Position numbers and translations under genes: made by a program. 64,000 bases of DNA from Haliotis rubra (Eukaryota), in contig NW_025766975.1 in NCBI RefSeq assembly GCF_003918875.1, positions 1,058,684-1,122,683 on the forward strand, in the 5' to 3' direction. This document shows positions 18,227 through 59,768 of the stretch, in pieces. The notes under the pieces are model-generated. The model made no database searches. It had not been told where the DNA came from and was given only the letters and a program-made list of their open reading frames with translations. Numbering within the stretch: position 1 is the stretch's first letter; the number at the start of each line of letters is the position of its first letter.

Positions 18227-18534
18227 ACACTATAAGGAGAATCGCGGTCTAAAATATGCATTCTCTATGTTTAGGAGTAGGCTAACCATGTAACGTAATA
18301 ATTAAGACGTACTTTCCCCCCTTTACTGACACTATATCAATAACATTGGTTGCTGTATGTATAATTCATTGGGTTGTGTGGCAGTAATTGCTTGGACTGT
18401 TAGAAATGTGTTGTTTATGAAACAGCAGTGTAGGGTACATGAAGTATTGACAGGGAACGGACCTCTACTCCACATTGACTATAACAGTCTTAGCATCATT
18501 GGGTGAACATTCTTTCATCGATGCCTCCTGCTAC

Positions 18535-18660
18535 TTCTCGAGTGAGTGAGTGCAGGACTGAGTGATAGTGTGAGTGGGTGAGTGAGTGAGTGAGTGAGTG
18601 CGGGAATGAGTGATAGTGTGAGTGGGTGAGTGAGTGTGTTCCACGGACGGTGGTCTGGCG
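18535..18660. repeat. (GAGT)n-rich microsatellite block
   Basis: gagtgagtgagtgcaggactgagtgatagtgtgagtgggtgagtgagtgagtgagtgagtgcgggaatgagtgatagtgtgagtgggtgagtgagtg. A homologous block lies at 12060-12130 and 12430-12500. Confidence 0.85.
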
Positions 18661-29954: not shown

Positions 29955-30127
29955 GACTGACTGACTAACTGAGTTTAGTTTTACGCCGCTTTTAGCAATA
30001 TTCCAGCAATATCACGGCGGGGGAGACCAGAAATCGGCTTAACACATTGTGCCCAGGTGGGGAATCGAACCCGAGTCTTCGGCGTGACGAGCCAACGCTT
30101 TATCCACTAGGCTACCCCACCGCCCCG
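29955..30127 (-). mobile_element. SINE family A copy with (GACT)n tail, in dup copy 1
   Basis: gactgactgactaactgagtttagttttacgccgcttttagcaatattccagcaatatcacggcggg...ggggaatcgaacccgagtcttcggcgtgacgagccaacgctttatccactaggctaccccaccgccccg. Confidence 0.8.
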
Positions 30128-31254: not shown

Positions 31255-31690
31255 GTTTTGTTCTAGTTTTGTTTACAACAATAACTTAAGATGTTACTTC
31301 CAAATATTCTTTAAGCCACTGCCTGTAAAAAACATTTCCCAGTGTTACAAAAAAGAGCTTCCTGGTTTGTTTGGCAGAATTTGAGGTGCCCCAAGGAGAC
31401 ACTGAAATGGAGTATATCATCCATCGTAGCAGTTGGTATTTCTTCCTGTTTTGTTTATAACAATGGGTTGGAATACAATAAGATATTATTTTAGTCTTGT
31501 TCAATAAAATCTCGACAACAAATACTAGCATTGACTGTATAATCCATTCCTCAGTGTAACAAGAAAGATCATCTTGGTTTGTTTGGCCGAATCTAAGGTC
31601 CCCCAATGGGACACTGAAATGGAGTTTAATATCAATTGACGTTGAAACAAGTGGGAGCTTAACACCACCGAAGATATAAAGAACAATCAA
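31255..31690. repeat. ~218-bp tandem repeat x2 (also 39790-40225 in copy 2)
   Basis: ...tgtttggcagaatttgaggtgccccaaggagacactgaaatggagtatatcatc... at 31364 matches ...tgtttggccgaatctaaggtcccccaatgggacactgaaatggagtttaatatcaa... at 31582. The motif tgttttgtttacaacaat precedes it at 31262 and 31448. Confidence 0.8.
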
Positions 31691-31969
31691 TTCGCTGTCA
31701 GTACAATTACAATGGGAAACCCATGGGAGGACATCACTCAATGTATTTTATTCTTTCCGTATTTTTTAGTCGTAGTACATTTGTGAAGTTTAATTGCTGG
31801 CTGAAATTGCGTACAATCGCCAGCAGCTAGACGAATGGTGTAAATCCGACTGGGAACCCCTGCAAGAAGCAGAAATCCCCAGTTTGGTGACCAAACTTTG
31901 TTTGATGTTGATCTTCAGTCCAGTTTTATACTGTGTTGCTGGATAACAATTTAATGTTTTAAAATCGTC

Positions 31970-32212
31970 TCAGACTAATCTTAAGTATAATTTGTGATAA
32001 TCTACACTAGACGCCAAAAGAAACGTTACCATCCTTCCTGAATGACTGAGGTACCTATCTTCAGCTGGCGTTGTGATGCTCGGACGACCACTTCTTGGTC
32101 TGTCTACGGTGACTCCAGTCGGTCTGGAGCCCTGAATATGTCTTATAACCGTGATACGGTGGCATCCGAGGGCGTTGGCAACGGCAATGTATTTCGACCC
32201 CATCTGCACCAT
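31970..32212 (-). pseudogene. Tc1-like transposase N-terminal (HTH/GRPR) fragment, solo
   Basis: Minus-strand ORF ...IAVANALGCHRITVIRHIQGSRPTGVTVDRPRSGRPSITTPAEDRYL... matches the Tc1/Sleeping-Beauty motif ...ISKRL.V.RS.V..IV.KY...G......RSGRPRKTTPR.DR.I. No DDE domain follows it. Confidence 0.65.
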
Positions 32213-32502
32213 CCCAATGGCCCTTTCTCTCTCTTCAGCTGTTAATCGTGGCGTATTTCTCGTACTTGTGTATCATATCATGTATTCTAGGTTCTCTTCA
32301 TACCCTATAGAATCATTCTACATTTGAAATGATTGCAAATATTGTTTGAATATTGCTGCGTTTTGGCGATTGCTATTGCTATGTGTAAACAGAAAATGGA
32401 ACAATGTTACTTTGCAAGCAAAATATTAACAAAGATAATGTAAGATGTTCCTAAACATTTTTTTCATAATATCAAAGACACGTTTAACTTGTTTTCATTA
32501 AT

Positions 32503-32750
32503 AAGTGAGTGAGTGAGTGAGTTTAGTTTTACGCCGCACTCAGCAGTATTCCAGCTATATGACGGCGCTTTGTAAATAATCGAGTCTGAACCAGACAATT
32601 CAGTGATCAACAGCATGAGCATCCATCTGCGCAATTGGGAATCGATAACATGTGTCAACCAAGTCAGTGAGCCTGACACCCGATCCCGTTAGTCGCCTCT
32701 TACGACAAGCATGGGTTACTGAAGGCTCATTCTAACCCGGACCCTCACGG
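32503..32750 (-). mobile_element. SINE family B with 12-bp TSD (gttttcaYtaat)
   Basis: Full B consensus. Flanking direct repeats gttttcattaat (32491-32502) and gttttcactaat (32751-32762). Confidence 0.85.
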
Positions 32751-35700
32751 GTTTTCACTAATGCAAATCAGCAAAAAATGTTTTAAAAGACTGAAATCAT
32801 AGGAATGATTATTTTACAATTTTACACACTCTACAACAGTTGTTTCTTGTTTTAAAGGTTGAAAAATTGTGGCTTTTAATGGTTTATCTTTGTCCCAAAG
32901 CAGATTTTATTGCAGCCTTTCTTTTGGACATCTAAATCACTATTATTGGTTGAGTTTGGCGTGGACGAAAATAGGACAATTTAACTCTTCTGAAAAAGAT
33001 GCATTTCACCTAAATGTGAATGCATTTGAGAATTTGTTTTCGTGATTTGCATAAATCTGTTGTTAAGCTTTCTTGAAAGCTAATACCTTCTAACATATCC
33101 TTGATATTTTCTAAGTAATTCATAAAGGTAGGAGGGTAACTTTTCTTTTGGCGTTTAGTGTTTGTGTTGTCTTTCGACGATAGGTTTCCATACAGTAAAA
33201 ATCTCAGAATTAGTAATTAATGATTTTCTGTCGGCATGATATATGGCTGCCTGTGACGTGGAATGTGAACGCACTCTGATGGGAGAAAGAGAATACAATT
33301 CCAGTGATAGCTGCAAAAGAAACCTAGCAGTAGACTGGATATCAAAGGTGTAATCGTCACACAACCGCTTGAAGAGAGATGCATGCACTTGCCCACTTAT
33401 GTAGTTTCAATACATTCTTGAACGTTTCACACAATGGTGCATAAACCTTTTTCAAATATTGTAACTTCCACACCTATGCTTACATTCCATAGCAAATTAT
33501 TCTTACATCCTTCCATCAAACTTTAACAAAGACAATGTAATACAACATAAACAGTGTTCACAAATGTATTAAACTAACGCTCCGATAGTTCTTATGGTTA
33601 TTGAAATGCTTCTGTTTGGCTTTAGATAAGTGTCTGTCCGAGGAAATGGTCCACGCGATGTAATGTTATCTTAATGCTGACAATATTAATTCATAACGTT
33701 CTAAACGAAAACGAAAGTTCGAAATCCAAAATTATGTATAATATTGTTCACTGTGGAAGAACGTACTACTTACTTTTGTATAGATAACCGTTTGGATCAG
33801 TCGTTATTTCTTGAGAAAGAGATTCATTTCAACGGAATCACGGCATTCCTAGCGTTTATTGGTGTTCAATCGTTTTTTGGATCTGAAATAGACACACACA
33901 TGTGACTGACATAGAAAGGATCCCATTATACAATGGCAATCTGAGGACAAAGAAAGACCTCTGGTTTGCTATGTAAGCTTCCATTTCTTCAGCTTGAGAA
34001 ACATATATTTCCTTAGAATCCCTGAAACCCTCCAGGTCTGTCCGAAGGATACCTGATTCCTGGTACTCCAGTGTACGTGATCAAGAAAGCGGTTACCATA
34101 TTGATGTTCCATAATGATGATACCGATTGAATAATAACTTCTACAACAGTTCTACCAACGGCTGTTTAGGACATTCAGGGATAAATAATGACAGTTTTAC
34201 GTCACATCTATGCGCGAGAGAGAGAACGGAACTCGAAATGTCCGTGTCGAGCACTAATAACTCCCCATGGCTTAATAAATGTATAGATTTGAATGAATGT
34301 GTTTTACGTGCAAAGACTGATGATAACGTGCGGCTACTAACACGGAATTATGTGATGACACGTTTCTATTAAGTGTGTATTATATGGGTAATTGGCAAAT
34401 TCTTCGTTGTTGACAACCAGCAGCTGATCCAGATCAATATTACCAGCATAGCTGGGTGTATTCAATGAACGATTTTTTATACTGACTGTTGTAAAAGCTC
34501 CAAAGAGTGTGCATTATTCTATTGTTTCGCTCATATTACTTGTTATAATTAACAGACGCTTTTGTTACAAAACGGGTAAAAAGTGCGGAATTGGATATAT
34601 TTGAAGCAATTGTAAAATCTGAAACTCTGTCTAACTAACTTTATAGAACTTACTTTGTTTGACCAGTTGTATTATTTGTTTTACATATTCAAATCCAACT
34701 GCGATATAAAGTATACTTGAACACGTTTATGATACGATATTTAAAGAGAGATACATATAAATGTGATATTTCCAACTGCTGTTAATCGCAGATCCTTTGT
34801 GATGCCTCTGACGAGCTCCCGATACAAAGTTTATTGGTGACATATACTAACCCTGTAGATTGCTTCTCTCATGGATGTGTTTGCTTTCACTCACAAGCCA
34901 TTCCCCCTCGTCAAACATAATCTTCAATTACCTAGGCATACTGTCTCCATACCGCCACGGCAGCAAAGGAAGTAGAAGAGGACAGTCCGGAAGGCGATAG
35001 TTTGTTACGACAGGACAGTTAATCATGTTCCGTTTGATTGAATATAAATGCAAACATCAGTTGTTAATCCAAGGAAAAATATAATGGCATACAATCTGTG
35101 ACAAACTATTTCCAGGCTGGACTAGGTTGTTATCAACTGTAATCCCACACCAAACCTTGTGTATTTGTCTTCGTTTCCTTTTATTTAAATGGCATACATA
35201 GAGTGAAGGCAAAATAGAGCAAAAACGTTTTTAGAAACCTAAATCCATGAATCATGTTTTATGGTTTTCTTTTTCGATTTTTCTGAAAACATTAGATCTT
35301 ACGCTGTATTTTAAACCTTTGACATTTCCACAGAGGACATAAATCCATCATGGATTAAATAACGGTTCATTTCGGTAAGTGAGTCATTTATAAATGCCAT
35401 TACCTTTTTGAAACGGACAACAGTTGTTGAAAATGCGCTGATTAAGATTGATATCCATGTGAAAGAATCCCGAAATATGGCTTAAATAAATAATGGATGG
35501 CGTATCTAAAGATAATGGAGTTTTGAAAGAGTTGGTATACAAGACAGATGTACATGTTTTCTCAAAAGAGGGGAGGAAGGTAATTCTGAAAACACTTCAT
35601 TTTATTAGATGTTAGCAAACGAGAGGATCAGTCTTTCTAAATATGTACATGATACAATGGCTTATGCTTGATGGAATAGGTACATCCAGAACGTGATGCT

Positions 35701-36081
35701 TGTCGTATTTATCCTTGACAAAGATGAAGCAGTTGATCCATCAAAGTAGACCAAAGACGGATGTTTGTTTTGTTTCGTTTTGTGATGAAACCATCTCCCG
35801 AGGAAAAATGGTCCTGACAGAGAAAGATGGGTGATTGTGCTTGTCTATTGGACCTCATGACATAATTGACTCTTCCATCAATTTGGAATTGCACCCTAGT
35901 TTCAGATATATGTTTTACTCTTGAAGTGTAAAATATGAACATCGGTAGAAGTATAACAGGCGTCCGTGTTGCCTTGCGTTGTGGACATTTGCCCAGAATG
36001 ACGCAGGTACTTATCAAGGTCCTCTCCAACTCTGAACGTGTTTATGAGTCTCTATCAACTAATGACGACACCAATTGAGCG

Positions 36082-38286
36082 GGTTAGGTCTACTAATGCC
36101 TACAGGGAATAATGCCTACAGGGAATAATAGCTACAACGTTTGCAGTGACAGCGATACGCTTACCTGCACACAAGTAGATTGTTCCACTTAGTGTGCACT
36201 ATTGCCTACAAAGGGATTAGGGGAGGCCAGCAAGGAGAGTAAAGAGTAAGATCAAGAGTATTAAATCGTTAGCTAGCTTATGTTTTGATAATTCCATACG
36301 CATTTAGTTCTCACCCGAGAAGGAAATTGAAGAGTAAAGTAATTAATAGAGAGAGATTATTAAAGGGAGAAGGAAATGTATTGCTTTAAAATTCTTGTGA
36401 TACAAATCTTCATTGCAAATCATGGCAAATCCCAAGAAAGTCGAATACTTCACATCACAGAAAGGAGGACAGCAGGTACTCTTGGAGGGGATACCGCTAC
36501 AGACTCAACAACAGGCGACAGACGTGTGTACACTGGAAGTGTGTTCAAGGTGGCTGCTTTGGCAAGTGTACGACAGTCGGAATCAGACCCCACACAACCA
36601 CCCACAAGAAGACCAGGTAGCCCTGAAGATTGCCAGTTCCCTGAGGCAGCGGGTACAGACTGAGACGACGCCAGTTCAGGTGATCTACGATGAGGAGATT
36701 TCCCGACTTGACCGAGGTGAAGCAGCAACAGTCAAGTCGTTCCATTCTATGAAGAGTGGACTCTACAAGCAGAGACGGAAGATGATGCCGCCACTTCCCC
36801 AGACGCTCAGCGAGGTGAATCTACCCGACTTATTCAAGGAGACTACAGATGGACTGCCCTTCCTCTGCATTGATGACGGTGATGATGACAAGATTCTCTG
36901 CTTCGCCAAAAGTGACCGCCTGACCCTCCTGCAAGAAGTGGACACCCTCTACATGGACGGCACCTTCTACTCCTGTCCTCCTCTCTGGGATCAGCTGTAC
37001 GTCATCCATGGCCTAGTCGGAGGGAAGATGACCCAGTTGGTCTTCTGTCTACTGCCGAATCGTCAACGCCGCACCTATGAACGCCTGCTACGTCTCCTGA
37101 ACGACAAGATCCAGCAGACAACGGGATCGCCCCTTCAGCCTGATGTCATCCAGACGGATTTCGAAATCGCTGCCATCAACGCTGTTGAGACCGTCTTCCC
37201 CAACTGCGACGTCCGTGGATGCTATTTCCACTACAGCCAGGCTCTCTGGAGGAAAGTACAGAACCTCGGCTTCAGCGAAGCCTACCAGCAGGATCCTGAG
37301 GTCCACAGATGGGTCCGACGAGCAGCAGCACTCCCCTCCTCCCAGTGGCCATGGTACAAAATGCCTGGATAGAGGTCATGGACGACGCCCCTGCCATTGG
37401 ACAGAAGGATGAGTTCCAGGACTACATCACCAGCACCTGGGTAGACGACCATGCACGGTTCCGAGCCGGACTATGGAATCACCACGACACCAGCGGCCCA
37501 AGGACGAACAATCATCTCGAGGGTTGGCATTCGCATCTCAACAAGACCGTCCAGAGAGCCCACCCGAACATTTTCGCTCTTGTGAAGGTTCTGCAGAAGC
37601 TGGAGAAAGCGGAGAGAAATAAGCTGGTGCAGATGGCTCATGGCGCCCGTCCCCCACCCTGCAAGAGGACGTACACAGAAATTGACCAGAGACTCACTCG
37701 TCTGAAGGCCCAGCTGACATCTGGTATCAAGGCACCCCTGGAATTCCTGACTGCTGCAGGATATTTGATCAAGCTAGTTTGAAAACCAAATGACTATGTT
37801 GATGAATGTGTGAAACTGTGTGTATACATGTAAATTACTTTTGGTTACCACAATGACTTTATTAATGAATGTGGTAGTTGACTGTGTGAAAGATGTATAT
37901 ATGTATATATAATCATGAATCAAATTAAGTTTTAATTACATTTTAATCCAAATAAATGATTATGTTTATTTATGTAAATTTATTTATCTCAAAACAAACT
38001 ACTATGTGAAAGATATGAATAAAGTTTAAGAAAATTAAGAAAAATATGACAACAATGTGAAAGATATGTATATGAATGTACATATGTATATGAATGACCA
38101 AATAAAATGTCTCTCAACATAGAAAGTTACTGTTTTCTATATACTGTAGGCATTAGTGCACTTTGAAATAGGACCATGCCACTTTATTGAAAGGTTGAAG
38201 GCAGGTGCAATTAGCAGCACTGGTGCGTAAAGTTGTTTATTTAACACTGTAGGCATTATTCACTGTAGGCATTAGTAGACTCCACC
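36082..38286 (+). mobile_element. Mutator-like (MULE) DNA transposon, 2205 bp, with TIRs and 8-bp TSD
   Basis: Left end ggttaggtctactaatgcctacagggaataatgcctacagggaata. The reverse complement of the right end is ggtggagtctactaatgcctacagtgaataatgcctacagtg (42-bp TIR with an internal 17-bp subrepeat). TSD attgagcg at 36074-36081 and 38287-38294. The empty site caccaattgagcgtgaaatc is intact at 29738-29757 in the paralogous copy. Confidence 0.85.
36413..37782 (+). pseudogene. MULE transposase (frameshifted; ORFs 36413-37372 and 37309-37782)
   Basis: DGTFYSCPPLWDQLYVIHG...CLLPNRQRRTYERLL...IQTDFEIAAINAVETVFPNCDVRGCYFHYSQALWRKVQ... and, downstream, ...WNHHDTSGPRTNNHLEGWHSHLNK... are diagnostic MULE/Mutator transposase motifs. 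The reading frame shifts by 1 nt within 37300-37370 (the ctcccctcctccc tract). The N-terminus (KVEYFTSQKGGQQVLLEG...C..W) is weakly FLYWCH-like. Confidence 0.8.
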
Positions 38287-38504
38287 ATTGAGCGTGAAAT
38301 CAATATCATTTGTTTCAAACAGACAGTCGTTATAAGACTATATTACCGATTGAGATGTGTTGTCAAAGTGAATAACCTGAAGGTGTTCCACACAGTGTCA
38401 AGTCAATCAGCTAGAGAATGTTTAAGCTCAATGCTGGACGGTGACAAACTTTTATTTCACAATCACGCATTAACACAATCGCTGAGAAGGTATTTTCCTA
38501 GACT

Positions 38505-38673
38505 GACTGACTGACTGAGTTTAGTTTTACGCCGCTTTTAGCAATATTCCAGCAATATCTCGGCGGGGGACACAAGAAATGGGCTTAACACATTGTGCCC
38601 ATGTGGGGAATCAAACCTGGGACTTCGGCGTGACGAGCCAACGCTTTAACCACTAGGCTACCCCACCGCCCCG
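38505..38673 (-). mobile_element. SINE family A copy (paralogue of 29955-30127)
   Basis: Identical structure and position in dup copy 2. Confidence 0.8.
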
Positions 38674-40527
38674 TATTTTCCTAGAGCTAGCGAGTATTGT
38701 TAACAGAGAGGTTTAGCTTCGTTCATTGTGTAGAAAAGTATCGATTCGAATAAAATGAAACCTTTGCAAGGCGTAGTATTTCTTCCGACGTTAATTAATT
38801 TTCACATAAAACATCGCAATCATAGCCCTCGATAGTTACTGTCAACACGAATGCTGAGTCAATCTAATATCGATCTCAAATTGCCCTAACAAGTGATTGA
38901 CAGAAATGTTCCACTGGCAAAACTGAGTTGTTTTGATTAACTTTCGTGAACTTGCTGATTGGTTTCTTTCCAACCTTTGCATGTACCTTGCGATCAAATA
39001 TTGATTGGGAATGTGATGCAGGGCTGGACAGGTTTGTTGAGCTGATAGAGTAGCATTTAATTATTTTTTATTAGTAACATGATGCCAATATTATCTAGGA
39101 AAGATTATGATATTTTGTGCTATTCGTTTAATTGAGTACATTATCTGATTCATCATTTGAACTTGAAAAAAATGATATTTTCAAAAAGGGAACTACATGC
39201 CGTTATGAATTACTCAATAATATTTTGAAATAGGGGAGTGGCATGTTTCATCATTGTTAATGGCACTCAAATAATTACTTTTCCATGTACGCTTCATGCT
39301 TGTTAGTTTCTACCAACAGGTTGGTGGTTTCAAAGGGCGTCGTACGACTTTTGTTCCAAAGTTGTCTCATGAAGGTTATGATGTTAGGGAACTTAGTGAA
39401 GCTTTCAAAACGTTTATGGTAGACATGTGGAGGTATTTCCAGATTTGACGCTTCAGTAACACACGGATGTCTGATGCAATTGCTTGTGGCATAATGTTGT
39501 TGCTCCATGTCATCAGCGGGCCTCACCCTTCACGTGCACGTTACTGTATAACCATCAATAAGTCAGGGGCACTGAGTACATATATAGTGTGAAGTATATT
39601 TCGATAATACTATTGACTTTCACATTATACTCTATCGAAAGGGGTCTACACTCTCCCAAGTACTATTTCTCTTTGCAATTTGCTCAGCAGACTTGTGTTT
39701 CTTATGTATGGCAACAACAGCAACAACAAAAACCGGATGGGAAAAACATCTAGGTCACTGCCAATGCAACATGTCGGTCACACACGTGGTTATCTTCGGA
39801 GGGAGCTGATTTTGTTCTAGTTTTGTTTACAACAATAACTTAAGATGTTACTTCCAAATATTCTTTAAGCCACTGCCTGTAAAAACCATTTCCCAATGTT
39901 ACAAAAAAGAGCTTCCTGGTTTGTTTGGCTGAATTTGAGGTGCCCCAAGGAGACACTGAAATGGAGTATATCATCCATCGTGGCAGTTGGTTTTGTTCCT
40001 GTTTTGTTTCTAACACTGGGTTGGAATACAATAAGATATTATTTTTTTCTTGTTCAATAAAATCTCGACAACAAATACTAGCATTTCCAGCAGCTGTATA
40101 ATCCATTCCTCAGTGTAACAAGAAACATCATCTTGGTTTGTTTGGCCGAATCTGAGGTCCCCCAATGGGACACTGAAATGGAGTGTAATATCAATTGACG
40201 TTGAAACAAGTGGGAGCTTAACACCGCCGAAGATATAAAGAACAATCAATTCACTGTCAGTACAATTACAATGGGAAACCCATGGGAGGACATCACTCAA
40301 TGTATTTTATTCTTTCCGTATTTTTTAGTCGTAGTACATTTGTGAAGTTTAATTGCTGGCTGAAATTGCTTACAATCGCCAGCAGCTAGACGAATGGTGT
40401 AAATCCGACTGGGAACCCCTGCAAGAAGCAGAAATCCCCAGTTTGGTGACCAAACTTTGTTTGATGTTGATCTTCAGTCCAGTTTTATACTGTGTTGCTG
40501 GATAACAATTTAATGTTTTAAAATCGT

Positions 40528-40770
40528 CTCAGACTAATCTTAAGTATAATTTGTGATAATCTACACTAAACGCCAAAAGAAACATTACCACCCTTCTGAA
40601 TGACGGAGGTACCTATCTTCAGCTGGCGTTGTGATGCTCGGACGACCACTTCTTGGTCTGTCTACGGTGACTCCAGTCGGTCTGGAGCCCTGAATATGTC
40701 TTATAACCGTGATACGGTGGCATCAGAGGGCGTTGGCAACGGCATTGTATTTCGACCCCATCTGCACCAT
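40528..40770 (-). pseudogene. Tc1-like N-terminal fragment (paralogue of 31970-32212)
   Basis: Same sequence at the paralogous position. The antisense ORF 40600-40803 mirrors ORF 32042-32245. Confidence 0.6.
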
Positions 40771-41040
40771 CCCAATGGCCCTTTCTCTCTCTTCAGCTGT
40801 TAATCGTGGCGTATTTCTCGTACTTGTGTATCATATCATGTATTCTAGGTTCTCTTCATACCCTATAGAATCATTCTACATTTGAAATGATTGCAAATAT
40901 TGTTTGAATATTGCTGCGTTTTGGCGATTGCTATTGCTATGTGTAAACAGAAAATGGAAAAATGTTAACAAAGATAATGTTAGATGTTCCTAAACATTTG
41001 TTTATTATATCAAAGACACGTTTTACTTGTTTTCACTAAT

Positions 41041-41273
41041 AAGTGAGTGAGTGAGTTTAGTTTTACGCCGCACTCAGCAGTATTACAGCTATATGACGGC
41101 GGTCTGTAAATAATCGAGTCTGGACCAGACAATCCAGTCATCAACAGCATGAGCATCCATCTGCGCAATTGGGAACCGATGACATGTGTCAACCAAATCA
41201 GCGAGTCTGACACCCGATCCCGTTAGTCGCCTCTTACGACAAGCATGGGTTACTGAAGGTTCATTCCAACCCG
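41041..41273 (-). mobile_element. SINE family B (paralogue of 32503-32750, with a 10-bp deletion at the head)
   Basis: Same TSD gttttcactaat on both sides. The head ends ccaacccgg|ttttcactaat instead of ccggaccctcacgg. Confidence 0.85.
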
Positions 41274-42106
41274 GTTTTCACTAATGCAAACCAGCAGAAA
41301 ATGTGTTAAAAAACTCAAATCATAGGAATGATTATTTTACAATTTTACACACTCTACAACAGATGTTTCTTGTTTTAATGTTTGAAAAATTGTGACTTTT
41401 AATGGTTTATCTTTGTCCCAAAGCAGATTTTATTTCAGCCTTTCTTTTGGACATCTAAATCACTATTATTGTTTGAGTTTGGCGTGGACGAAAATAGGAC
41501 AATTTAACTCTTCTGAAAAAGATGCATTTCACCTAAATGTGAATGCATTTGAGAATTTGTTTTCGTGATTTGCATAAATCTGTTGTTAAGATCTCTTGAA
41601 AGCTAATACCTTCTAACATAATATCCTTGATATTTTCTAAGTAATTCATAAAGGTAGGAGGGTAACGTTTCTTTTGGCGTTTAGTGTTTGTGTTGTCTTT
41701 CGACGATAGGTTTCCATACAGTAAAAATCTCAGAATTAGTCATTAATGATTTTCTGTCGGCATGATATATGGCTGCCTGTGATGGAATGTGAACTCACTC
41801 TGATGGGAGAAAGAGAATACAACTCCAGTGATAGCTGCAAAAAGAAACCTAGCAGTAGACTGGATATCAAAGGTGTAATCGTCACACAACCGCTTGAAGA
41901 GAGATGCATGCACTTGCCCACTTATGTAGTTTGTACATTCTTGAACGTTTCACACAATGGTGCATAAACCTTTTTCAAATATTGTAACTTCCACACCTAT
42001 GCTTACATAGCATAGCAAATTATTCTTACAACCTTCCATCAAACTTTAACAAAGACAATGTAATACAACATAAACAGTGTTTACAAATGTATTAAACTAC
42101 CACATA

Positions 42107-43407
42107 CAGTACAACCAGAAATTATTGAGAATTTAAAGATTGTAATTTTTTATATTATTTTCACTCATTACTCACGTATTAAATGTGAATATTAGCAGAA
42201 CATAACTCCAGATTCAAAGACAGGTGAACAGTTAGTATTTTGTCAAGTCACCATGGGCAGCAATGCAGGCTTCAATGCGGCGGGGCATACTACTGATCAA
42301 AGAAGTTAGAAAGTCGTGGTCCATGCTGTCCCAATATCGGACCACCTCTTCTTTCAATTCAGCAATATTTGTCAGATTTTTCTTATTGACACTTTCCTTC
42401 ATAAGTCCCCAAACATTTTCTATTTGATTTAGGTCAGGGCTATAGCTTGGCCAATCTTATAATGTCATATTTTGGGTCCGAAACCAGGCCTGTGAATGCT
42501 TTGAACGATGTTTTGGGTCGTTGTCCTGCTGGAAAATCCAAACATTTCCATAGAACACGTGAGCAGATGGAAATAAATGTCCCTCGAGAATATTTGTGTA
42601 CCGCTCACTGTTCATATTCCCTTCAAATACACAGAGGGGCGTTGCCCCTAACACAGATATGCCACACCACACGTTAAATTTCGGACTGTACTTTGGGCGC
42701 TGATACAAAGGTCTTTCAGTTTGTTTGGTCCAGAATTTCAGTGTATTAGGAAACAGCCACACAGAACTTTCATCTGAGAAAATCACATTGTCCCAGTTAA
42801 AATTTCTATGCTGTAAGCACCAGTTCAACCTTCGCTCCTTTTGTTCAGGTTTCATGATCGGTGATGGAATTCCTCGACTTTTCTACCAACCCATTGCATG
42901 CAGCTCAGTTCTTATTGTCTCCTTACAGACAGCCACAGTTCCTCTATCAATCATATCCAGCCTTAAGTTTTCTAAACGCCTTCGTTTGTTTTTAGAAACA
43001 AGAATACCAAGCCGCCTCCTGTCACCGACAGTCAATTTTCTGGGCCTACCTGCGCCTCCCTGGTGCTCAATGCCATATCCATTTGCAATATTTTCAAAAC
43101 ACGATAAACAGTGGACAAAGGGATGCCTGTTCTACTTGAAATCACTTTAGCTGATCTGATGTCCTTGTTATAATACTCTAAAATCAACTTCCTCTTCTCT
43201 AAATCATCCATACTGAGGATCACTGAAAATGTCGTCTGCTAGCAAGTAAACAAAGGGGGATAACTCTTCACAAACTAATGAAAAAGGGTTAACGGAGTTG
43301 TCTCTCTTGAATGAAACCAAACACTTGATAGCTGGTCAAGGTTGTTTATACTAGAAATCCAATTATTAAACATATTCCTAAAATTCTCAATAATTTCTGG
43401 TCATACT
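42107..43407 (-). mobile_element. Tc1-like DNA transposon with TIRs and TA target site
   Basis: Left end TA|cagtacaaccagaaattattgagaattt. The right end is aaattctcaataatttctggtcatacta|TA, whose reverse complement is tagtatgaccagaaattattgagaattt. It encodes a full-length Tc1 transposase on the minus strand. Confidence 0.85.
42232..43223 (-). pseudogene. Tc1-like transposase, about 330 aa, with at least 2 frameshifts
   Basis: N-terminus MILSMDDLEKRKLILEYYNKDIRSAKVISSRTGIPLSTVYRVLK (HTH). Middle QKERRLNWCLQHRNFNWDNVIFSDESSVWLFPN...NVWCGIS...FQQDNDPKHRSK (DDE). C-terminus in a third frame, ...PSYSPDLNQIENVWGLMKESV...SMPRRIEACIAAHGDLTKY*. The span of 992 bp is not a multiple of 3. Confidence 0.85.
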
Positions 43408-43994
43408 ATAGCATAACGCAAAGGCTTCAAACATATTGTATTACTGATTTCAGGAAGTATCGGAGAAACAAAAGCCCCCTTTGGTCAGTCACAAAGTCAA
43501 AATTAATACATCACAACAGAATGGACCGGACAATTGATATAGGGATGACTGGGTCTTAGACAATCAGGGTAGGGTCATGGAAGACACATAATATTTGGGG
43601 TTGGTTATTTGAAAGGCATCATCTTTATAATGAAATATATGGTTCTTTTAGCATTTTATCTTCATGGGGGGTTATAAAATTGAACATGGAGATAGGGAGA
43701 GTCATTAACAATATTACAAGAACTCGGGGAGGGTAATTATTTCCAGTACATTTGTTCGGGCAAAAAAATATCTGAAACACCCTCCGTTACTAAATGACCG
43801 GTCTCTAAATGGAGGTTTTGTGTGATAGAAAGTCCTAGGATATACAGCTCTAAGACGACGAGACTCGGGAAAGTAAGCCGACAGATATTTTACTTTGATG
43901 TACAAATTATTGACTAATAAACTAACACAAAGTAGAGATAACTGTAATCTGCTCGGAGCCAACTATAATCCAGCCCAACAGAAGACGTCCATAC

Positions 43995-50382: not shown

Positions 50383-51590
50383 AGTTATAATGAATAATAA
50401 TAATAATAATAAATGCATATTTATAATGCGCCCCTTCCACACCCTAAGGCATGCTCAAAGCGCTACAGAATATTTACACTGGAGTATTTACAGATGAAGT
50501 TATACATAATATACTGAGAAAAGGTGGGTTTTAAGTCTGGACTTAAAAATGTCAATTGTGGCAGAGCTTTTAAGGGCACATGGGAGAGAGTTCCAAAGCA
50601 CAGGCGCGGAGTAAGAGAATGATCGGTGTCCGAAGGATTTCAGTTTGTAGGATGGGATGACCAGTCGGTTTTGTGTGTTTGAGCGCAAGTTGCTTGCGGA
50701 GACATACGGATGTAGGAGTTCAGACAAGTAGGAGGGAGCCAAACCATGGAGGCACTTGTATGTCAGACAGAGGATCTTAAAGTCAATTCTGGCCCTAACT
50801 GGTAGCCAATGCAGTTCTTTCAACACTGGTGTTATATGGGAACGTTTAGAAGTCTTGCTGATGATGCGGGCGGAAGTATTTTGGATCTTCTGAAGCTTAT
50901 CAAGGAGTTTAGAACTGAGGCCTGAAAGGATGCTGTTACAGTAATCAAGCCTAGATGTAACAAGAGCTCGAACAAGGGCTTGAGTTGCAGCAGTTGTCAG
51001 GTATTGCCGAATGATACCAATGGATCTTAGGTGAAAGTAGCAGGTCCTGCTCAGACGGTTAACATGAGCATCCAGAGTCAAGGAAGAGTCGATGTGGACA
51101 CCCAAGTCCTTAACCACATCAGAGAATCTGACGTCAGAGTCTGCGACTGTAAGGGTGTCGGTTTTGACCTTGCTGAGTTGTTGCTTTGTACCAATGAGAA
51201 CTGCTTCTGTTTTTGTGTCATTAAGTTTAAGCATGTTTCCTGTCATCCAGCACTTGATGTCCTGCGTACATTCAGCGATGCACTGAAGAGACGTAAATAG
51301 ATCTGACAGATGAAATGCTTTCAGGAGCTGGGTGTCATCAGCGTAGGCATGATGAGAAACTGTGTGGTCTGTAGTAATCCTTCCGACATATCCGGTATAC
51401 AACACAAACAGGACTGGACCAAGGACTGATCCCTGTGGCACCCCACATGTGATTACAGTGCCTTTTGATCTCTCAGTGCCAACAACAACAGATTGCTGTC
51501 GGTCAGACAGATACGACGTCACCCATTGAAGGGCATGACCTTCAAGTCCGTACTGTTGTGTGAGCCTGGACATGGTATATAAATACATGT
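50383..51590 (-). mobile_element. 5'-truncated non-LTR retrotransposon (CR1/L2-like LINE) 3' part with (ATT)n tail
   Basis: RT C-terminal ORF followed by a 100-bp 3'UTR ending in (ATT)6. On the + strand this reads (aat)6 at 50385-50402. Confidence 0.85.
50500..51588 (-). CDS. Reverse transcriptase fragment (RT domains 4-7 plus C-terminal region), 362 aa ORF
   Basis: ...GVPQGSVLGPVLFVLYTG...HAYADDTQL...LQKIQNTSARII...ITPVLKELHWLPVRARIDFKILCLTYKCLHGLAPSYLSELL...RSFSYSAPVLWNSLP...FKSRLKTHLF. This is a typical CR1/L2-clade LINE ORF2 3' end. It has no upstream RT or EN region, so it is truncated. Confidence 0.85.
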   Translation of the reverse strand: MYLYTMSRLTQQYGLEGHALQWVTSYLSDRQQSVVVGTERSKGTVITCGVPQGSVLGPVLFVLYTGYVGRITTDHTVSHHAYADDTQLLKAFHLSDLFTSLQCIAECTQDIKCWMTGNMLKLNDTKTEAVLIGTKQQLSKVKTDTLTVADSDVRFSDVVKDLGVHIDSSLTLDAHVNRLSRTCYFHLRSIGIIRQYLTTAATQALVRALVTSRLDYCNSILSGLSSKLLDKLQKIQNTSARIISKTSKRSHITPVLKELHWLPVRARIDFKILCLTYKCLHGLAPSYLSELLHPYVSASNLRSNTQNRLVIPSYKLKSFGHRSFSYSAPVLWNSLPCALKSSATIDIFKSRLKTHLFSVYYV

Positions 51591-53284: not shown

Positions 53285-53478
53285 ACTCTTCTACCGGCTG
53301 ATTGAGTGAATGCTTGTTGTTTAACCCTGCACTCAACAGTATTTCAGCTGTTTGGTGGCGGTCTGTAATTAATCGAGTCTGGACCAGACAATCCACTGAT
53401 CAACAGCATGAGCATCGACCTACGCAGTTGGGATACGATGACATGTGTGAACCAAGTCAGCGAGCTTGACCACCCGAT
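53285..53478 (-). mobile_element. SINE family B, truncated in the head
   Basis: ccctgcactcaacagtatttcagctgtttggtggcggtctgtaattaatcgagtctggaccagacaatccactgatcaacagcatgagcatcgacc...tgaccacccgatcatgatgtc. Confidence 0.8.
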
Positions 53479-53481
53479 CAT

Positions 53482-53686
53482 GATGTCAATCATGGAATGT
53501 CTGGTCCCGACTCAATTATTTACAGACCGCCGTCATAAAGCTGTAATATTGCGGCGTCAAAGTATACTCATGCCAATAATGGTTGTCACCCCCTTCCCCA
53601 CCCCAACCCCATCCACACACACCTCACACACCCTCTCCAATTAAACAATTGAAAGGGGTGACAACCATTATTGGCAAGAGTATACA
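53482..53686. repeat. Inverted SINE-B 3' fragment (53482-53572, sense) plus 33-bp-stem hairpin with 57-nt C-rich loop (53561-53686)
   Basis: gaatgtctggtcccgactcaattatttacagaccgccgtcataaagctgtaatattgcggcgtcaaagtatactcatgcc is an inverted partial copy of the adjacent SINE. It is followed by agtatactcatgccaataatggttgtcaccccctt ... loop ccccaccccaaccccatccacacacacctcacacaccctctcc ... aaaggggtgacaaccattattggcaagagtatac. Confidence 0.75.
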
Positions 53687-54376
53687 AACAAACACAACAA
53701 AACACAAACGAATCGCTTCACCGCAAACAATCTGCAGAATAATCAGGGTAATCATATAATATATCAGATACTGTCTCGTCATTACGAAATAGACTATTTG
53801 ATTATGTCCTTAAGCATTAGAAATCGAACTATTAAAAGAAAAAATAATGATTAAAATCGTCACTACAGACGTTTGACAAAAAAGTAGTCTTGAAATGTCA
53901 CAGGGGATCAGTAAAGCAATAAAATACTAATCACATTTCTACCCTGATGGCACGGTAAAAGCATTAGCCACATCTGTTTTGGGAGAATATTAAGATATGG
54001 TAGATCATTCATGTCATAATTAATTTAAGGTCTTCAAAGTGGTTTGTAAAAAGGTGTTTATACGTGGTGAGAGGTTTCGAGGTGATTTGTCCTTTTCGAA
54101 GTGTAAAAGGGTTTATTGAGATTGATGAGACAAGTGAGGCCTGTGAAATATTAGACGCTATGCAGTGAAGCAATCCTGTACCAGCACTGTCTCGGGATAC
54201 AGATGGTAGTTGCCTTATGTTCCGATGCTGACCGAATGTGCTGCGTGGATGCTGCCGCTGTCCAAGAAATCAACTATTCCATACGTCGTACCAAGGGTGA
54301 GAAGTTGTTATGGTTGGGGATCTGCGAATATCAAATATCAAACACACAATGCCATTTTGAAAAGTGGTCAAATGTA

Positions 54377-54693
54377 ACATATGTTATATTTGGGATTACA
54401 CTTTCTTAGTAAAGTACAGATTCTAGTACTTTTGTTGGGTTGAGTCCAAACAAACGGCCGTAGGAGCCGTGCCAATTAACACTTATCAGAGGGGTACACA
54501 AAGTCCGCAGTCTAGACTACCATTTTTGTGGAAGCCGCGGTGGCTGAGCGGTCTAGGCGTCTGACTTTGTGTGCTGGCGATTAGGTGCCTGAATCTGAGG
54601 GTGCGGGTTCGAATCCCGGATGGGACTCAACCCAACAAAAGTACTAGAATCTGTACTTTACTAAGAAAGTGTAATCCCAAATATAACATATGT
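54377..54693. mobile_element. Foldback or MITE-like element: perfect 71-bp terminal inverted repeats around a 175-bp tRNA-Ser-like core
   Basis: Arms at 54377-54447 and 54623-54693 are exact reverse complements (acatatgttatatttgggattacactttcttagtaaagtacagattctagtacttttgttgggttgagtcc). The core has a Ser-type D-arm (gtggctgagcggtctaggcg) and a T-arm (gggttcgaatccc) but no clean anticodon arm. A 13-bp direct repeat aatatcaaatatc lies at 54327-54339 and 54694-54706. Confidence 0.7.
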
Positions 54694-57600
54694 AATATCA
54701 AATATCGTTCCCGAAAGATATGCTCAAAAACATATCCTATCCCAAAACATATCCTGTTTCTGCTCAAGAAAAATATTCAGGTATCAAGCTGTATTGCGAT
54801 AAGCAACGCATGAACTCCTTACCCTTGAACTAAGCCTTTTTTAAATGTCGAAACAAACCTAAAATATATTGCAACAGACATTTGGTTCTTTTATTTCGAG
54901 CATTGTATTTCCTGTTATAATATCTTCCTTGGTGATAAGAATTTTCGACCTGTATGGTACTTGAGGTTGTTTCGAAAGTATCACCACCACAGTCTCTCAT
55001 CAACAAATTCAGCTACCAATTTGAAAAATGATCTGCTGAAACAACAGATGCTGGCTTGTGTCATCATTCAAAATAACGGCTTCGTATGAGCGATTCAGAT
55101 GACTGTATAAAACATTGAGCTGTAAATGATTTTCCTGTGTTATTTAAACAGGGGAATAAAAGACCTCAGGGTACAGCAAGTTGTCAATTGCGTTTGAAAT
55201 TGTAATATGGACAGTTGTTACGAATGTCATTTCATCTGAGTCTGTATTTAGCATTGTTATATCTGCACTAGGGGCAAAACAATGGTGTCGAATGTTCTGG
55301 ATTGTCTTGCAATAAAATGGATTTTGATATTCGGGATTTTCGAGGGTAAGAAACTCTGTTGCATACCAGTACATGTACCTTCTCAGTCTTAAAACATTTT
55401 TCTGACCCGAGTGCCTCCTTGGTCGCGAGAATGGAACGCGTGCCATGAGAGCGGAAGGCCGTTAATTTTACCTCAGGCATTGTCATACTAAGAGAACTTG
55501 TTTTTACAAGTGTGGAGTAATGGGATGAAGCAATGTCTGGTGGGTACACTGTCTCTAACTCTAGGCATCATTACAGTGTATCTGAGCGGGGTTTTCATGT
55601 TGAACCTGTGTCTCGGCGGGCTGATGCCATGAACCTGGTATTATTCGAGGATGTAGAAGCAGCAAGCAGACACCCCTCACCTCCTCCATACAAACGTGCA
55701 ATAATCGTGAACGTCTTTTTTCTCAGACATGCACTGCTTGGTCAAATTAGTTGACAAGGTGTTCCTTGATGGGGTTGGTGTGACGTCGAGTTTCACAGGT
55801 CATACGCAAGGTATCGCTGTGGGCAAACACTACAAAACCCGCAGTAATCCAATCCAAATACACACGCACTAACGCACACGCACACACATATTGCTGTAAG
55901 TGCAGTCATCACCAAGCGCTCCTAATACATTATAGATTTCAAGAACTACAATTGCTTACAACTCACTGAAAAGCTTCTTTAGAGCGGAACTGACAGTATG
56001 ATTAACCTTGTCATGGTATGAATGTACAAACACGTCGGGACGTCTGGAACATTATGATATACTTTGCATTACATGTCACTTTGTATTCACGATACAGTCC
56101 TTCAATAACAAATGCAATACATATGAGACAACTTGTGATGTTCGTATTATCAGCAGTAGACTCTCCGCAGACATACGTTTGGAATCGGACACAACGTTTA
56201 TTACATTGTCTGGCAGTGGATGTGGTGGTAAGGGTTATCTTGCAACCACAGAAACTCCACCAACAGCTTAGACGGGGAATTATCTTCAGTGAGATGCATC
56301 ACATGAAGTCTATTAACAATGTATATTTGATAAAATATTTCTTTTTACGATATTGGTTTCGTAATGAAATGTCGGTAGGCTTTAAATACAATACCACATT
56401 TCTATTATTTTATTGTCAATATGGCTTTTTATTGATGTGTGATATAATTTTCTTTGATGACATATATCAGTCGAGTGAATATTTTCTATAACTGACAGAC
56501 ATGCATCCTTTTGAAAACTGCAATGAGATATTCATTGCAATAACACATCGTTGGTCTTCGTTGTGCACATGATAATATAGACTTTTCTAACTTTTTAAAA
56601 ACAATCATTTGGGAATAAACTCAGACATCGAGGATTTGGTTTATGAAGCTTGCAAGATATACATATTCCATATGCTCCATGGCCTCTTTACAGGACTTCT
56701 GTCTGCTGAGCATGTGTTATTGTCAGTATAGATCCTGAATGGCTCCCTTAGGTCTATAAGTATCAGTTTATTCTTGTGTATTCTTATAACATTGCATGAA
56801 ATAGAAACACGATTTATTCAGAAATACTTCCAGAAAGTATGTCAATCATTTTAAGGAACGCCACTGGGACTATAAAATTATGAATTATGAAGTTCGGAGT
56901 GAACTGTCTAACTGATATGAGCTAGTAGCCAGAAGTTTAATTTGAAAACACTCTAAGTCCAGATAGGTAATATCCTTTGAACATGAAGTAGTGTAAACTA
57001 CACGCATTGTAGGGACTTTTGTTGGTATATTGATAAACGTTCGTAGTTTTGTGCAGTCAATAGAAAAACGGATTAATTTATAAACATATATGCATAATAT
57101 TATCACCATCATCATAAGCATCATCAATGCTTGCCCTATTAAAACTAAACAGATACCCACGGGAATGAATCGTTATGTAATTGAACAAAATACAAGTCAT
57201 AACACACTGGATTTATCAGATTTATCCATAAATATCTTCCATCACAATGTCGTTCTGTCTATAAATAGCTATGTAACATCACAATTCCTCAACATTTAAA
57301 GATGAGATTTATTCTTTCATTTTGCAAGCCTGTCATAGAAGATTAAAAGGAAAAAAGTGGTGTGAAAAACACTCACTCACTCACTCACTCATATCTCAAA
57401 GGTTAAGTCCTGCTGCTTCCACCTGGGATATCAGTACTACAATCTTCTACAAATATCTCTTAGTAGCAACACCTAACACGTCCTATGTCTAACACCCTCA
57501 TCTACAAATACGGTAAGCAGCTGTCAGCACTAAGTAGTACGTCTTGTCTCTTTTATCGCAGCTACGTCTGTAACATCTATCGGAGTAAACCTAAAGTAAT

Positions 57601-58617: not shown

Positions 58618-59768
58618 TACTGAACCACAAAAGAAACGTCGTTTTTCAAAACCAAATGCAAGATTTTGTTCTTACAAAATGGTGTTTTTATTATGATTCT
58701 ATCGTTTTGTTAACATGTTTTTCAATCCAAATTGACAGTTATTACCAACATCAGTGTGTTTTCTTATGAAAACGCATATCGACCAAACGCACATAAAAAT
58801 GCAGACGTAGTAAAAGGATCCGTATGACATTCATGAAAATGAAAATGCACGTGCATATCGTGACAACCCTACCAATGAAAGCGAGTCCCAAACTCGCCTG
58901 AAATCATTTTTGTTTTGACACAATCGCCATGGCACGACTTACGAGAGATCAGAGGAACCAAGTCTAGGGACGATTGCCAGTTGGCCAGACTGCACGGAGG
59001 GTAGCCAATCATTTTAATCTCCATGATAGGACAATCTACCGACTGCAGGAGTGGTATCAGGCTACTAACAGCATCCAAGACCGCCCAGGCAGAGGGCGAC
59101 CTTCAGTAACATCACAACGTCAAGACCGACAGATTGTGCGCCACCATCTGCAGGATCGCTTCCCCAGAGCGACGGGAACAGCACGCCAGACCATTGCGAC
59201 TCACAACAGACCCATCAGTGCCGATACAGTGCGTCGACGTTTGCGCGGGAGAAACCTCTGCTCTCACAGTCCATATTGTAGTCCTGTCCTAAACCGCTCA
59301 TCACCACCACAACCGACTGCAATGGGCAACTCAGCATCGAAATTGCCGTTTTCGACAATGGAGAACTGTGCCTTTTTCTCATGAAAGCCGATATTGTGTT
59401 TCGACAGTCGATGGCAGAGTGAGAGTATGGTGAAGGCGTGGGGAACTGTTTTCCAATGAGTGTATTGTTGAAAGAGACTCGCTGGGTGTTCCAAGCATCA
59501 TGGTGTGGGGTGCAATCGGTCTGAACATTATGCGCAACGCTTTCATCGATGCCCATAGAGGCCACACACAATACTGACTTTGGGGTATCTTAATGGTACC
59601 ATTCTTGGTAATTTGGTTTGTGTGAACTCTAAATGTGATTCCCGAAAATGTGTTAACCATAAGTTTCAAGTTTGAACTCAATCCTCCGTTTTGATTGTTA
59701 ATTAGAGTGAATTAAAGTGTGTGCTTTAAGAAACCGCTATCGGTGCGACATTTTTTTGTGGTTCAGTA
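58618..59768 (+). mobile_element. Tc1-like element, internally deleted pseudo-copy, with 27-bp TIRs and TA TSD
   Basis: Left TA|tactgaaccacaaaagaaacgtcg; right cgacatttttttgtggttcagta|TA. The ORF from 58929 reads MARLTRDQRNQV*..RLQEWYQATNSIQDRPGRGRPSVTSQRQDRQIVRHHLQDRF...TARQ...ISADTVRRRLR, then in another frame W.TVPFSHESRYCVSTVDGRVRVWRRRGE...IMVWGAIG. It contains stops and frameshifts and the DDE C-terminus is missing. Confidence 0.7.

Follow-up and report, generated by a model that had tools for sequence, protein, structure and literature searches.

The closest described counterparts of the locus reported here are LINE-1 insertions formed by twin priming and the modular SINEs of molluscs. 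According to PMC12016303 and PMC2912911, twin priming of LINE-1 goes back to Ostertag and Kazazian 2001. The two cDNAs of L1 5'-inverted insertions can have sequence in common, and the overlaps of human L1 cDNAs have a median of 12 bp (PMC12016303). Most 5'-inverted L1 copies display 2-5 bp of microhomology, which is typical and not obligatory, and twin priming and extra junction nucleotides have also been described (PMC2912911). Among human SINEs, 5' inversion on insertion is very rare, with 1 case in 5554 Alu (PMC2912911). In molluscs, MESC and the LP-SINEs are SINEs in which the tRNA head is preceded by an additional module (PMC4758252). Here we analyzed a 64,000-nucleotide stretch of Haliotis rubra DNA (the window), in which positions 54340-54693 are probably one copy of a tRNA-derived SINE, rearranged by twin priming on insertion into a 5'-inverted form with a 71-nt overlap.

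The locus contains a pair of inverted arms that are complementary at 71 of 71 positions, as the sequence-only reading had stated, and the pairing reaches 76 nt at 97% identity if extended (54372-54698). A 38-mer taken from the arm matches only the two arm sites in the window, with 0 chance matches expected. The core between the 71-bp arms is unique and 175 bp long, and the junction strings of the window copy are GCCGTTTGTTT/GGACTC and ACATATGT/AATATC. Folded as single-stranded DNA, the 354-nt unit is characterized by -110.8 kcal/mol, in comparison to -36.9 +/- 3.8 kcal/mol for shuffled sequences. Library or long-read errors can create perfect palindromes; the one described here is nevertheless extremely unlikely to stem from a read chimera or from wrongly joined sequence. 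An exact 13-bp target duplication at the bounds is not expected of an artefactual palindrome, the breaks fall precisely at two places in a repeat family, its 5' end and an internal point, and are separated by 7 filler nt, and the arms are merely 71 bp long, placed around a unique core.

The 13-bp direct repeat, AATATCAAATATC, is present in two exact copies on the same strand, 367 bp apart, one of them 37 bp beyond the left arm and the other directly abutting the right arm. With one mismatch tolerated, the string was found nowhere else in the 64-kb window, where approximately 0.45 such matches are expected over both strands. Thus, two exact same-strand copies are very unlikely to have arisen by chance. 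The single pair surrounds a composite insert of 354 bp, and the earlier suggestion that the repeat is the target-site duplication (TSD) of a larger unit, 54340-54693, is borne out. A TSD of 13 bp is within the LINE-type range, and DNA-transposon TSDs are not known to be as long. Under twin priming, the empty site would read GCG-AATATCAAATATC-GTTCCC, that is, an uninterrupted ...GGGGATCTGCGAATATCAAATATCGTTCCCGAAAG... The features of the insert are collected in Table 1.

Table 1 Features of the insert and its flanks, in window coordinates. RNA positions are those of the rebuilt source RNA.
Feature	Position	Strand	Remarks
TSD, left copy, AATATCAAATATC	54327-54339	.	Exact 13-mer repeated at 54694-54706
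SINE 3'-terminal 37 nt (minus-strand TACATTTGACCACTTTTCAAAATGGCATTGTGTGTTT)	54340-54376	-	Putative non-inverted cDNA; abuts TSD
Left arm, SINE body in putative non-inverted cDNA, RNA 176-246	54377-54447	-	71/71 complementary to 54623-54693
7 extra nt, AAACAAA, at inversion junction	54448-54454	.	Missing in L006 full-length copy and L006 inverted fragment
5' leader module in putative inverted cDNA, starting at inferred RNA 5' end CGGCC	54455-54532	+	
Leader segment complementary to head (54551-54572)	54496-54517	+	18/22; local alignment score equalled in 0.1% of 1000 shuffles
Degenerate class-II tRNA-like head	54533-54628	+	ARAGORN at 90% threshold; homologues in L005 and L006
Right arm, SINE body in putative inverted cDNA, ending at RNA position 246	54623-54693	+	Abuts right TSD
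TSD, right copy	54694-54706	.	Exact repeat of 54327-54339

The core is a degenerate class-II tRNA-like sequence, which is tRNA-derived and is not a working tRNA. Direct reading of the sequence places an intact A box, TGGCTGAGCGG, at 54541-54551 and an intact B box, GGTTCGAATCC, at 54606-54616. Only when the ARAGORN threshold was lowered to 90% did a class-II cloverleaf of 96 nt appear; it has a long variable arm, poor, mismatched acceptor and anticodon stems and TGT as its 'anticodon'. At the default threshold the program found 0 tRNA genes in the core, whether introns were allowed or not, and a search of the core against Rfam at E<=10 gave the T-loop hairpin only, with no tRNA match. A functional tRNA gene, whether intronless or interrupted by an intron, was excluded by these negatives, in agreement with the previous description of the core as tRNA-derived and short of a complete cloverleaf. 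The tRNA-like 3' end was also rightly seen to continue into the arm, which the head overlaps from 54623. As for the Ser-type D-arm and canonical T-loop proposed at the same time, the T-loop (GGTTCGAATCC) stands, and the Ser type is no better than the Leu type; we take the D-loop AGCGGTCT-AGGCG to be at least as Leu-like as Ser-like by the pattern of eukaryotic tRNAs. The head shares with class-II tRNA genes (Leu/Ser) a 3-bp D-stem, the AGCGGTCT-AGGC D-loop, the long variable arm and the T-loop. Unlike these genes, it falls below the ARAGORN and Rfam thresholds, has mismatched acceptor and anticodon stems and carries an 'anticodon' that is not that of any class-II tRNA. 'Class-II tRNA-like' is the safe description. 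Homologous tRNA-like heads are present at two further Haliotis loci, L005 and L006, and the corresponding boxes in the L006 copy are TGGCTGAGTGG and GGTTCGAATCA.

To characterize the relatives of the element, we rebuilt the source RNA from the window by joining plus-strand 54448-54693 to the reverse complement of 54340-54376, each of which is natively contiguous, and compared it with approximately 208 kb of Haliotis DNA besides the 64-kb window. Positions 8-282 of the rebuilt RNA are colinear with L006 10943-11217 from H. cracherodii (226/290 identical, E 1e-59), and the match crosses both critical joins, head/arm and arm/37-nt end, unbroken. L005 15839-16035 matches RNA positions 74-270 (72% identical, E 7e-28) and crosses the arm/37-nt join, and further family fragments are located at L006 10802-10936. 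The 37-nt 3' end directly continues the body in three independent Haliotis copies (L006 11181-11217, L006 10897-10933 and L005 ~16010-16035), and the left arm together with its outer 37 nt forms one colinear block aligned to L006 11119-11217. The leader is colinear with L006 10943-11040 and has an inverted match at L006 10802-10869. The RNA 5' end lies at position 8 in the window's inverted segment and in the L006 full-length copy, whose match begins at CGGCC (window 54455), and at position 10 in the L006 inverted fragment. The arm is present once in these relatives, and neither L005 nor the surroundings of the L006 full-length copy contain an inverted partner of it. The canonical unit is linear and ~276 nt long, and consists of a leader of ~78 nt, the class-II tRNA-like head, a body of ~65-70 nt and a 3' end of ~37 nt. 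The sample comprises the window copy and 3 further ones, 4 copies in ~272 kb, the further ones coming from another species at 72-78% identity. From its sequence features in these 4 copies (short, non-coding and dispersed, with a common linear structure and A and B boxes), the family would be classed as a tRNA-derived SINE. The L005 copy has a possible 7-bp TSD, TTTTCAG; clean TSDs were found for neither the L005 nor the L006 copies. A MULE in the window was considered as a stand-in for the unoccupied L006 site and rejected, as the alignment, at 65% identity, stops short of the insertion.

The linear relatives bear directly on whether the element could be a MITE or foldback DNA transposon, with TIRs of 71-76 bp, a tRNA-derived core and a TAA duplication as in PIF/Harbinger. 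In favour of such an element, the inverted arms are long and perfect, setting its bounds at 54378-54692 puts TAA next to either end, and the DNA transposons MULE and Tc1 occur in the same window. However, a 3-bp match is weak in AT-rich flanks with free boundaries, and CAA fits the 76-nt arms equally well. The highly non-random 13-bp repeat is left unexplained, and the related copies are linear, with the arm occurring once and running on into the 37-nt end. Neither other copies of the element within the window nor a second foldback copy in the 208 kb of Haliotis DNA were found, and the exact arm and head strings had no match in metagenome and viral contig collections. We regard a transposon of this type as scarcely credible. 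The earlier proposal, whether of a MITE or of a foldback that took up part of a tRNA gene, is unsupported, given linear Haliotis relatives and a TSD that does not lie around both arms.

Read on the minus strand, the insert runs TSD, inverted RNA 8-246, 7 filler nt, direct RNA 176-283, TSD. Only the minus strand yields a TSD, an inverted 5' part, a direct 3' part and a TSD, and in this orientation the tRNA-like head of the inferred RNA is in sense and precedes body and tail, the arrangement expected of a SINE. One TSD is adjoined by the non-inverted segment, which includes the element 3' end, and the other by the inverted segment, which begins at an internal position. Both segments are colinear with the linear family. 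The right-arm side is without the element's last 37 nt, and there the match with the L006 full-length copy reaches no further than the arm's outer end. The absence of the 3'-terminal 37 nt from the inverted part fits an internally primed cDNA and not a normal retroposed copy. In LINE-mediated target-primed reverse transcription, one target strand would have primed at the RNA 3' end, with the cDNA stopping after the last 108 nt to give the non-inverted segment (minus strand, 54340-54447). The other target strand would have primed within the RNA, at a distance of 37 nt from its 3' end, and been extended through to the RNA 5' end, giving the inverted cDNA with plus-strand sense at 54455-54693, and the two cDNAs would then have been joined via the 7 filler nucleotides. 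RNA 176-246 would be doubled in opposite orientations, and identical, because both cDNAs cover that stretch. Twin priming would explain three features together, namely why the arms are perfectly identical, why the TSD is offset by 37 bp on one side, and how the tRNA-like part is oriented. We infer that a LINE reverse transcriptase was the agent, that the template was one RNA or two identical RNAs, and that priming took place in the order given. Perfect arms had previously been called unexpected unless the structure is very young, is maintained by conversion or is an assembly artefact. A single, fairly recent insertion, in which reverse transcription of one RNA sequence produced the two arms, fits their identity, and conversion and assembly error are unneeded. 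The hairpin is a by-product, and no function is indicated for it.

Several features of the junctions are less typical. At the internal priming site, 54693/54694, 0 nt of microhomology are unambiguous (TSD end GATATT versus RNA UACAUU), and the inversion junction shows none, having the 7 filler nt instead. The 71-nt overlap is unusual, far above human L1 overlaps, and, like the missing microhomology and the rarity of 5'-inverted Alu copies in human, counts against twin priming. The same end product could come from a normal minus-strand SINE insertion that was later rearranged, if a template switch or repair event inverted RNA 8-246 and duplicated 176-246. Template switching does yield inverted duplications, and the absent priming-site microhomology and the 7-nt filler do not specifically require twin priming. 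Nevertheless, we consider a later event improbable, since its breakpoints must fall exactly on the TSD boundary at 54693/54694 and on the element 5' end at 54455, an end that is set by three independent copies, whereas an event at the time of insertion yields both breakpoints free. Two independent head-to-head insertions, a 108-nt 5'-truncated minus copy and a near-full plus copy, might also be envisaged; SINEs often land adjacent to each other, and L006 has neighbouring copies of this same family. This is very improbable. The plus copy would be without its 3'-terminal 37 nt, an outcome that target-primed insertion does not give, and separate TSDs would be required for each part where only a single pair, around the composite, is seen. 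Moreover, the overlap is identical at every position, compared with 20-28% divergence among family copies from different species.

Within the source RNA there is an inner imperfect inverted repeat, in which the leader segment listed in Table 1 is complementary to the D/anticodon region of the tRNA-like head. We considered the left interior as a diverged inverted tRNA-like copy, on which view the entire element would be an ancient palindrome, and rejected it: only the 22-nt island is similar, and outside it the similarity of the interior is no better than that of shuffles. L006 10802-11220 contains a second rearranged copy, with adjacent family copies, so that 2 of the 3 leader-bearing loci sampled (this one and the window) are rearranged, in comparison to ~1 in 5000 for human Alu. 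It is doubtful that the leader-bearing lineage is unusually prone to inverted or template-switched insertion; pairing of the leader with the tRNA-like head is a possible cause of such proneness. If the lineage is inversion-prone, perfect hairpin loci would be seeded repeatedly in abalone genomes, where they could serve as hpRNA/siRNA sources or fragile sites.

The sense strand carries T runs, T5 at 54524-54528 and T4 inside the 37-nt 3' end, that would terminate Pol III. By analogy with the LP-SINE proposal (PMC4758252), Pol II or read-through transcription of the source RNA is possible. No partner LINE sharing the SINE 3' end (CATTTGACCACTTTYWAAATGGCATTGTGTRTT) was found in the window and the fetched loci, a weak negative that covers ~272 kb only. 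The local LINE in the window ends in (ATT)n. The window is rich in LINE and SINE repeats, and DNA transposons (MULE, Tc1) are also present. A Pfam scan of all ORF segments from 44 to 64 kb for a host gene near the element gave a Tc1 HTH remnant only. An 80-aa ORF spanning the right arm had no gene-called copies in a protein collection, and the leader gave only sub-threshold, miRNA-like Rfam matches, caused by hairpins, when searched as a known RNA or ribozyme.

What looked like a tRNA-derived foldback transposon would become a worked case of LINE machinery turning a linear SINE into a perfect inverted repeat in a single step. Annotators who meet a young, perfect palindrome with an asymmetric TSD should first check it for 5' inversion and only then assign a MITE label. 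The unusually long cDNA overlap also bears on the template of twin priming, that is, one RNA with strand displacement versus two RNAs. The current understanding of retroposition is unchanged by these results.

The analysis also defines a Haliotis SINE, by its leader, class-II tRNA-like head, body and 3' end, that is matched to no published family. No sequence identity to published families or domains (MESC, LP, Nin-DC) was established, and the element strings had no match in the paper texts. In architecture, the element resembles the modular SINEs of gastropods and bivalves (PMC4758252): its head is tRNA-related and bears A and B boxes, a body follows, the 3' end is not poly(A), and the TSDs may vary in size. 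With the MESC/LP-SINE type it further shares an added 5' module of ~70-78 nt before the tRNA head and its occurrence in Haliotis. 5'-inverted LINE-1 insertions have the same order as the window copy, namely a TSD, an inverted 5' segment from an internal start, a non-inverted 3' segment and a TSD; their cDNAs likewise overlap in sequence, and the length of the window's TSD is of the LINE type. Unlike the LINE-1 case, the template in the window would be a SINE of ~276 nt in place of a 6-kb LINE, the 71-nt overlap compares with a median of 12 bp, filler replaces junction microhomology and there is no poly(A) tail. MITEs and foldback elements resemble the window copy in being short non-coding units with long inverted arms and a very stable hairpin. 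Unlike these elements, the mobile unit here does not have the arms as its two ends, its 13-bp TSD is asymmetric and its relatives are linear.

The arms that flank the core of the element show complementarity at 71 of 71 positions and lengthen to 76 nt if two mismatches close to their tips are allowed. A 38-mer taken from the arm was found at two sites in the window, both of them arms, and at none in shuffled sequences. The 13-mer AATATCAAATATC has no match in the 64-kb window beyond its two copies, even with one mismatch tolerated, and shuffles yielded 0.45 matches with at most one mismatch per window over both strands; thus, chance does not explain two exact copies on one strand at a distance of 367 bp. 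The inverted arms and the direct repeat claimed by the sequence-only reading are therefore real, and the repeat was correctly proposed to be the target-site duplication (TSD) of a larger unit; it delimits a 354-bp insert. The insert is asymmetric, with 37 additional bp on the left side only.

Features of the element and of the surrounding window (window positions)
Feature	Position	Strand	Remarks
Insert	54340-54693		bounded by the 13-mer copies
13-mer, left copy	54327-54339		37 bp outside left arm
13-mer, right copy	54694-54706		abuts right arm
Left arm	54377-54447
Right arm	54623-54693
A box	54541-54551
B box/T-loop	54606-54616
LINE fragment	50400-51588	minus	362-aa RT ORF (50500-51588); (ATT)n 3' tail; DNA 87% identical to H. 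asinina L001 9809-10982
MULE transposase ORF	36413-37372
High-copy SINE, example	30050-30121	minus
High-copy SINE, further examples	615-809, 1360-1562, 17979-18235, 32506-32752, 41039-41244, 53299-53552		of about 16 further sites; 1360-1562 is minus
Tc1/mariner-like element	42105-43410		56-nt TIRs beginning TACAGT; DDE ORF frameshifted
Tc1 HTH remnant	58968-59381		at ~59 kb; separate from the 42105-43410 element

The 175-nt core between the arms contains an A box, a B box/T-loop and a D-arm of class-II type. ARAGORN with default settings detected no tRNA gene in the core, whether or not introns were allowed, and Rfam (E ≤ 10) returned the T-loop hairpin alone. Only at 90% of the ARAGORN threshold did a 96-nt cloverleaf emerge (54533-54628); its variable arm is long, and its acceptor and anticodon stems are mismatched. 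A tRNA gene is ruled out on these grounds; the earlier claim of tRNA ancestry without a complete cloverleaf is correct. In addition, a 22-nt stretch of leader (54496-54517) and the D/anticodon part of the head (54551-54572) are complementary at 18 of 22 positions, a score attained by only 0.1% of shuffles; no inverted similarity was found elsewhere in the interior. The pairing partners seem to co-vary between the window (GTCTA:TAGGC) and the H. cracherodii locus L006 (GATCTA:TAGATC), a paired change that, coming from two sequences only, is no more than a hint that the SINE RNA is structured.

Read on the minus strand, the insert consists of TSD, arm, reverse-complemented core, second arm, 37 nt (TACATTTGACCACTTTTCAAAATGGCATTGTGTGTTT) and TSD. 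A 5' inversion with overlapping cDNAs has the layout TSD, rc(RNA r..p), rc(RNA q..r-1), RNA r..p, RNA p+1..end, TSD. The observed order matches this layout, as expected of a LINE-mediated insertion, in one of the two orientations alone, which puts the tRNA-like head in the place proper to a SINE head. The source RNA would then run through plus-strand 54448-54693 and on into the 37 nt TACATTTGACCACTTTTCAAAATGGCATTGTGTGTTT, comprising leader, sense tRNA-like head, body (the arm) and 3' end.

This predicted 283-nt RNA was used to query ~208 kb of Haliotis DNA around annotated TE-derived proteins. L006 10943-11217 is colinear with RNA positions 8-282 (226/290 identical; BLAST E 1e-59, nhmmer E 1e-49), and another Haliotis locus (L005 15839-16035) matches positions 74-270 (72% identity, E 7e-28) and looks like a leaderless copy beginning at the tRNA-like 5' end. 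Neither alignment is broken at the head-to-arm or the arm-to-37-nt-end join, and in both copies the arm is present once, without an inverted partner. From these linear relatives we infer that the mobile family is a linear unit of ~276 nt and that the palindrome in the window is a one-off rearrangement. The earlier interpretation as a MITE/foldback element is highly improbable and, we conclude, wrong: the relatives are linear with a single arm, the TSD is not placed at both arms, and the 3-bp TAA or CAA matches beside the arms are trivial. On the window plus strand, the full-length L006 copy aligns colinearly between 54455 (CGGCC) and the right arm's outer end; on the minus strand, it does so between the left arm's inner end and 54340. 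AAACAAA (54448-54454) lies in neither block and is filler. An assembly artefact would not keep to the TSD and the family boundaries, and has scarcely any probability. RNA position 8 is both the end of the inverted cDNA and the start of the full-length L006 copy, and a separate inverted L006 fragment ends at 10; together, these three ends suggest that the RNA has a defined 5' end. The SINE family may be undescribed.

L006 10802-11220 (JAJLRC010000008.1), within a MULE transposase ORF, comprises an inverted leader of 63 nt, 7 nt, a 3' fragment of 65 nt, 6 nt and the full-length copy of the same family (inverted repeat 98%, direct repeat 97%), and has the look of another insertion that was 5'-inverted or underwent template jumping. 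H. rufescens L007 7061-7175 is a further class-II tRNA-like SINE head (D-arm GGCCCAGTCGTCTAAGGCG; ARAGORN negative); GGGTTCGAATCCCGG occurs both in it and in the window element, at an nhmmer E of 0.04.

The best-supported explanation is that twin priming, a known process, gave rise to the element as a tRNA-derived SINE copy with 5' inversion. In twin priming, nicking of the first strand frees a target 3' end that primes at the 3' terminus of the RNA; the other 3' end, released by second-strand cleavage, primes internally, and the cDNAs are joined (PMC2912911, PMC12016303). Here, the tail-primed cDNA would have halted after 108 nt, and the internally primed cDNA would have started 37 nt from the RNA 3' end and extended to the RNA 5' end, so that both copied RNA positions 176-246. 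Twin priming accounts for the identity of the arms, copied from one RNA sequence in a single event, for the asymmetric 37 bp, for the plus-strand copy without a 3' end and for the single TSD pair. The intact TSD (13/13) indicates that the event is not old. Inverted duplication of a normal SINE insertion at a later time is unlikely, as its breakpoints must fall exactly on the TSD edge and the element's 5' end. Two separate insertions lying head to head are very unlikely, for they predict neither a copy without a 3' end, nor one common TSD pair, nor a 71/71 identical overlap.

Long ORFs are almost absent from the window, the few present encoding LINE reverse transcriptase and MULE transposase, whose best named relatives are from H. 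asinina, H. cracherodii and H. rufescens (71-85% identity). The 10 kb to either side of the element contain no host gene. A high-copy tRNA-derived SINE also present in H. asinina (L001 7650-7924) occupies at least 16 window sites at up to 94% identity; the head of one copy is the window's sole Rfam tRNA match (32.1 bits), not a tRNA gene, and ARAGORN was negative. These protein and SINE matches suggest that an abalone or a near relative is the source of the window. One minus-strand copy lies in the 253-nt loop of a second foldback (1278-1692; 81-nt arms, 91% complementarity), its (ACTC)n tail adjoining the left arm; possible explanations are the insertion of a SINE into a MITE and a further rearrangement at the time of insertion. 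A tandem duplication with a 6.4-kb unit (27178-42099; 27178-33576 versus 33576-36081 plus 38283-42099, 94-95% identity) has its second copy broken by a 2.2-kb MULE (36088-38280; 43-nt TIRs, GC 48%), for which the first copy is the empty site; the alignment blocks overlap at 29736-29748, roughly TSD-sized. A unit of ~7 kb forms about three tandem copies in 2094-19565 (2094-9354, 9754-16505, 17283-19565; 80-96% identity).

Several features sit less easily with twin priming. No microhomology is visible at the internal priming site, the inversion junction carries filler, and no partner LINE for the SINE family was found in the window or the Haliotis loci searched. In humans, 5' inversion is very rare among SINE insertions (1/5554 Alu, PMC2912911). 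For a specialist, two points may merit a look, namely the overlap of 71 nt and the rearranged H. cracherodii copy of this family, the overall interest being modest. cDNAs sharing sequence are recorded for L1 with a median overlap of 12 bp (PMC12016303), against which 71 nt is unusually long. T-runs on the sense strand disfavour simple transcription of the entire unit by Pol III. Mollusc SINEs with an additional 5' module ahead of the tRNA head are known, and Pol II has been proposed as a possible polymerase for them (PMC4758252); the leader of the window element resembles their "LP" module in layout.
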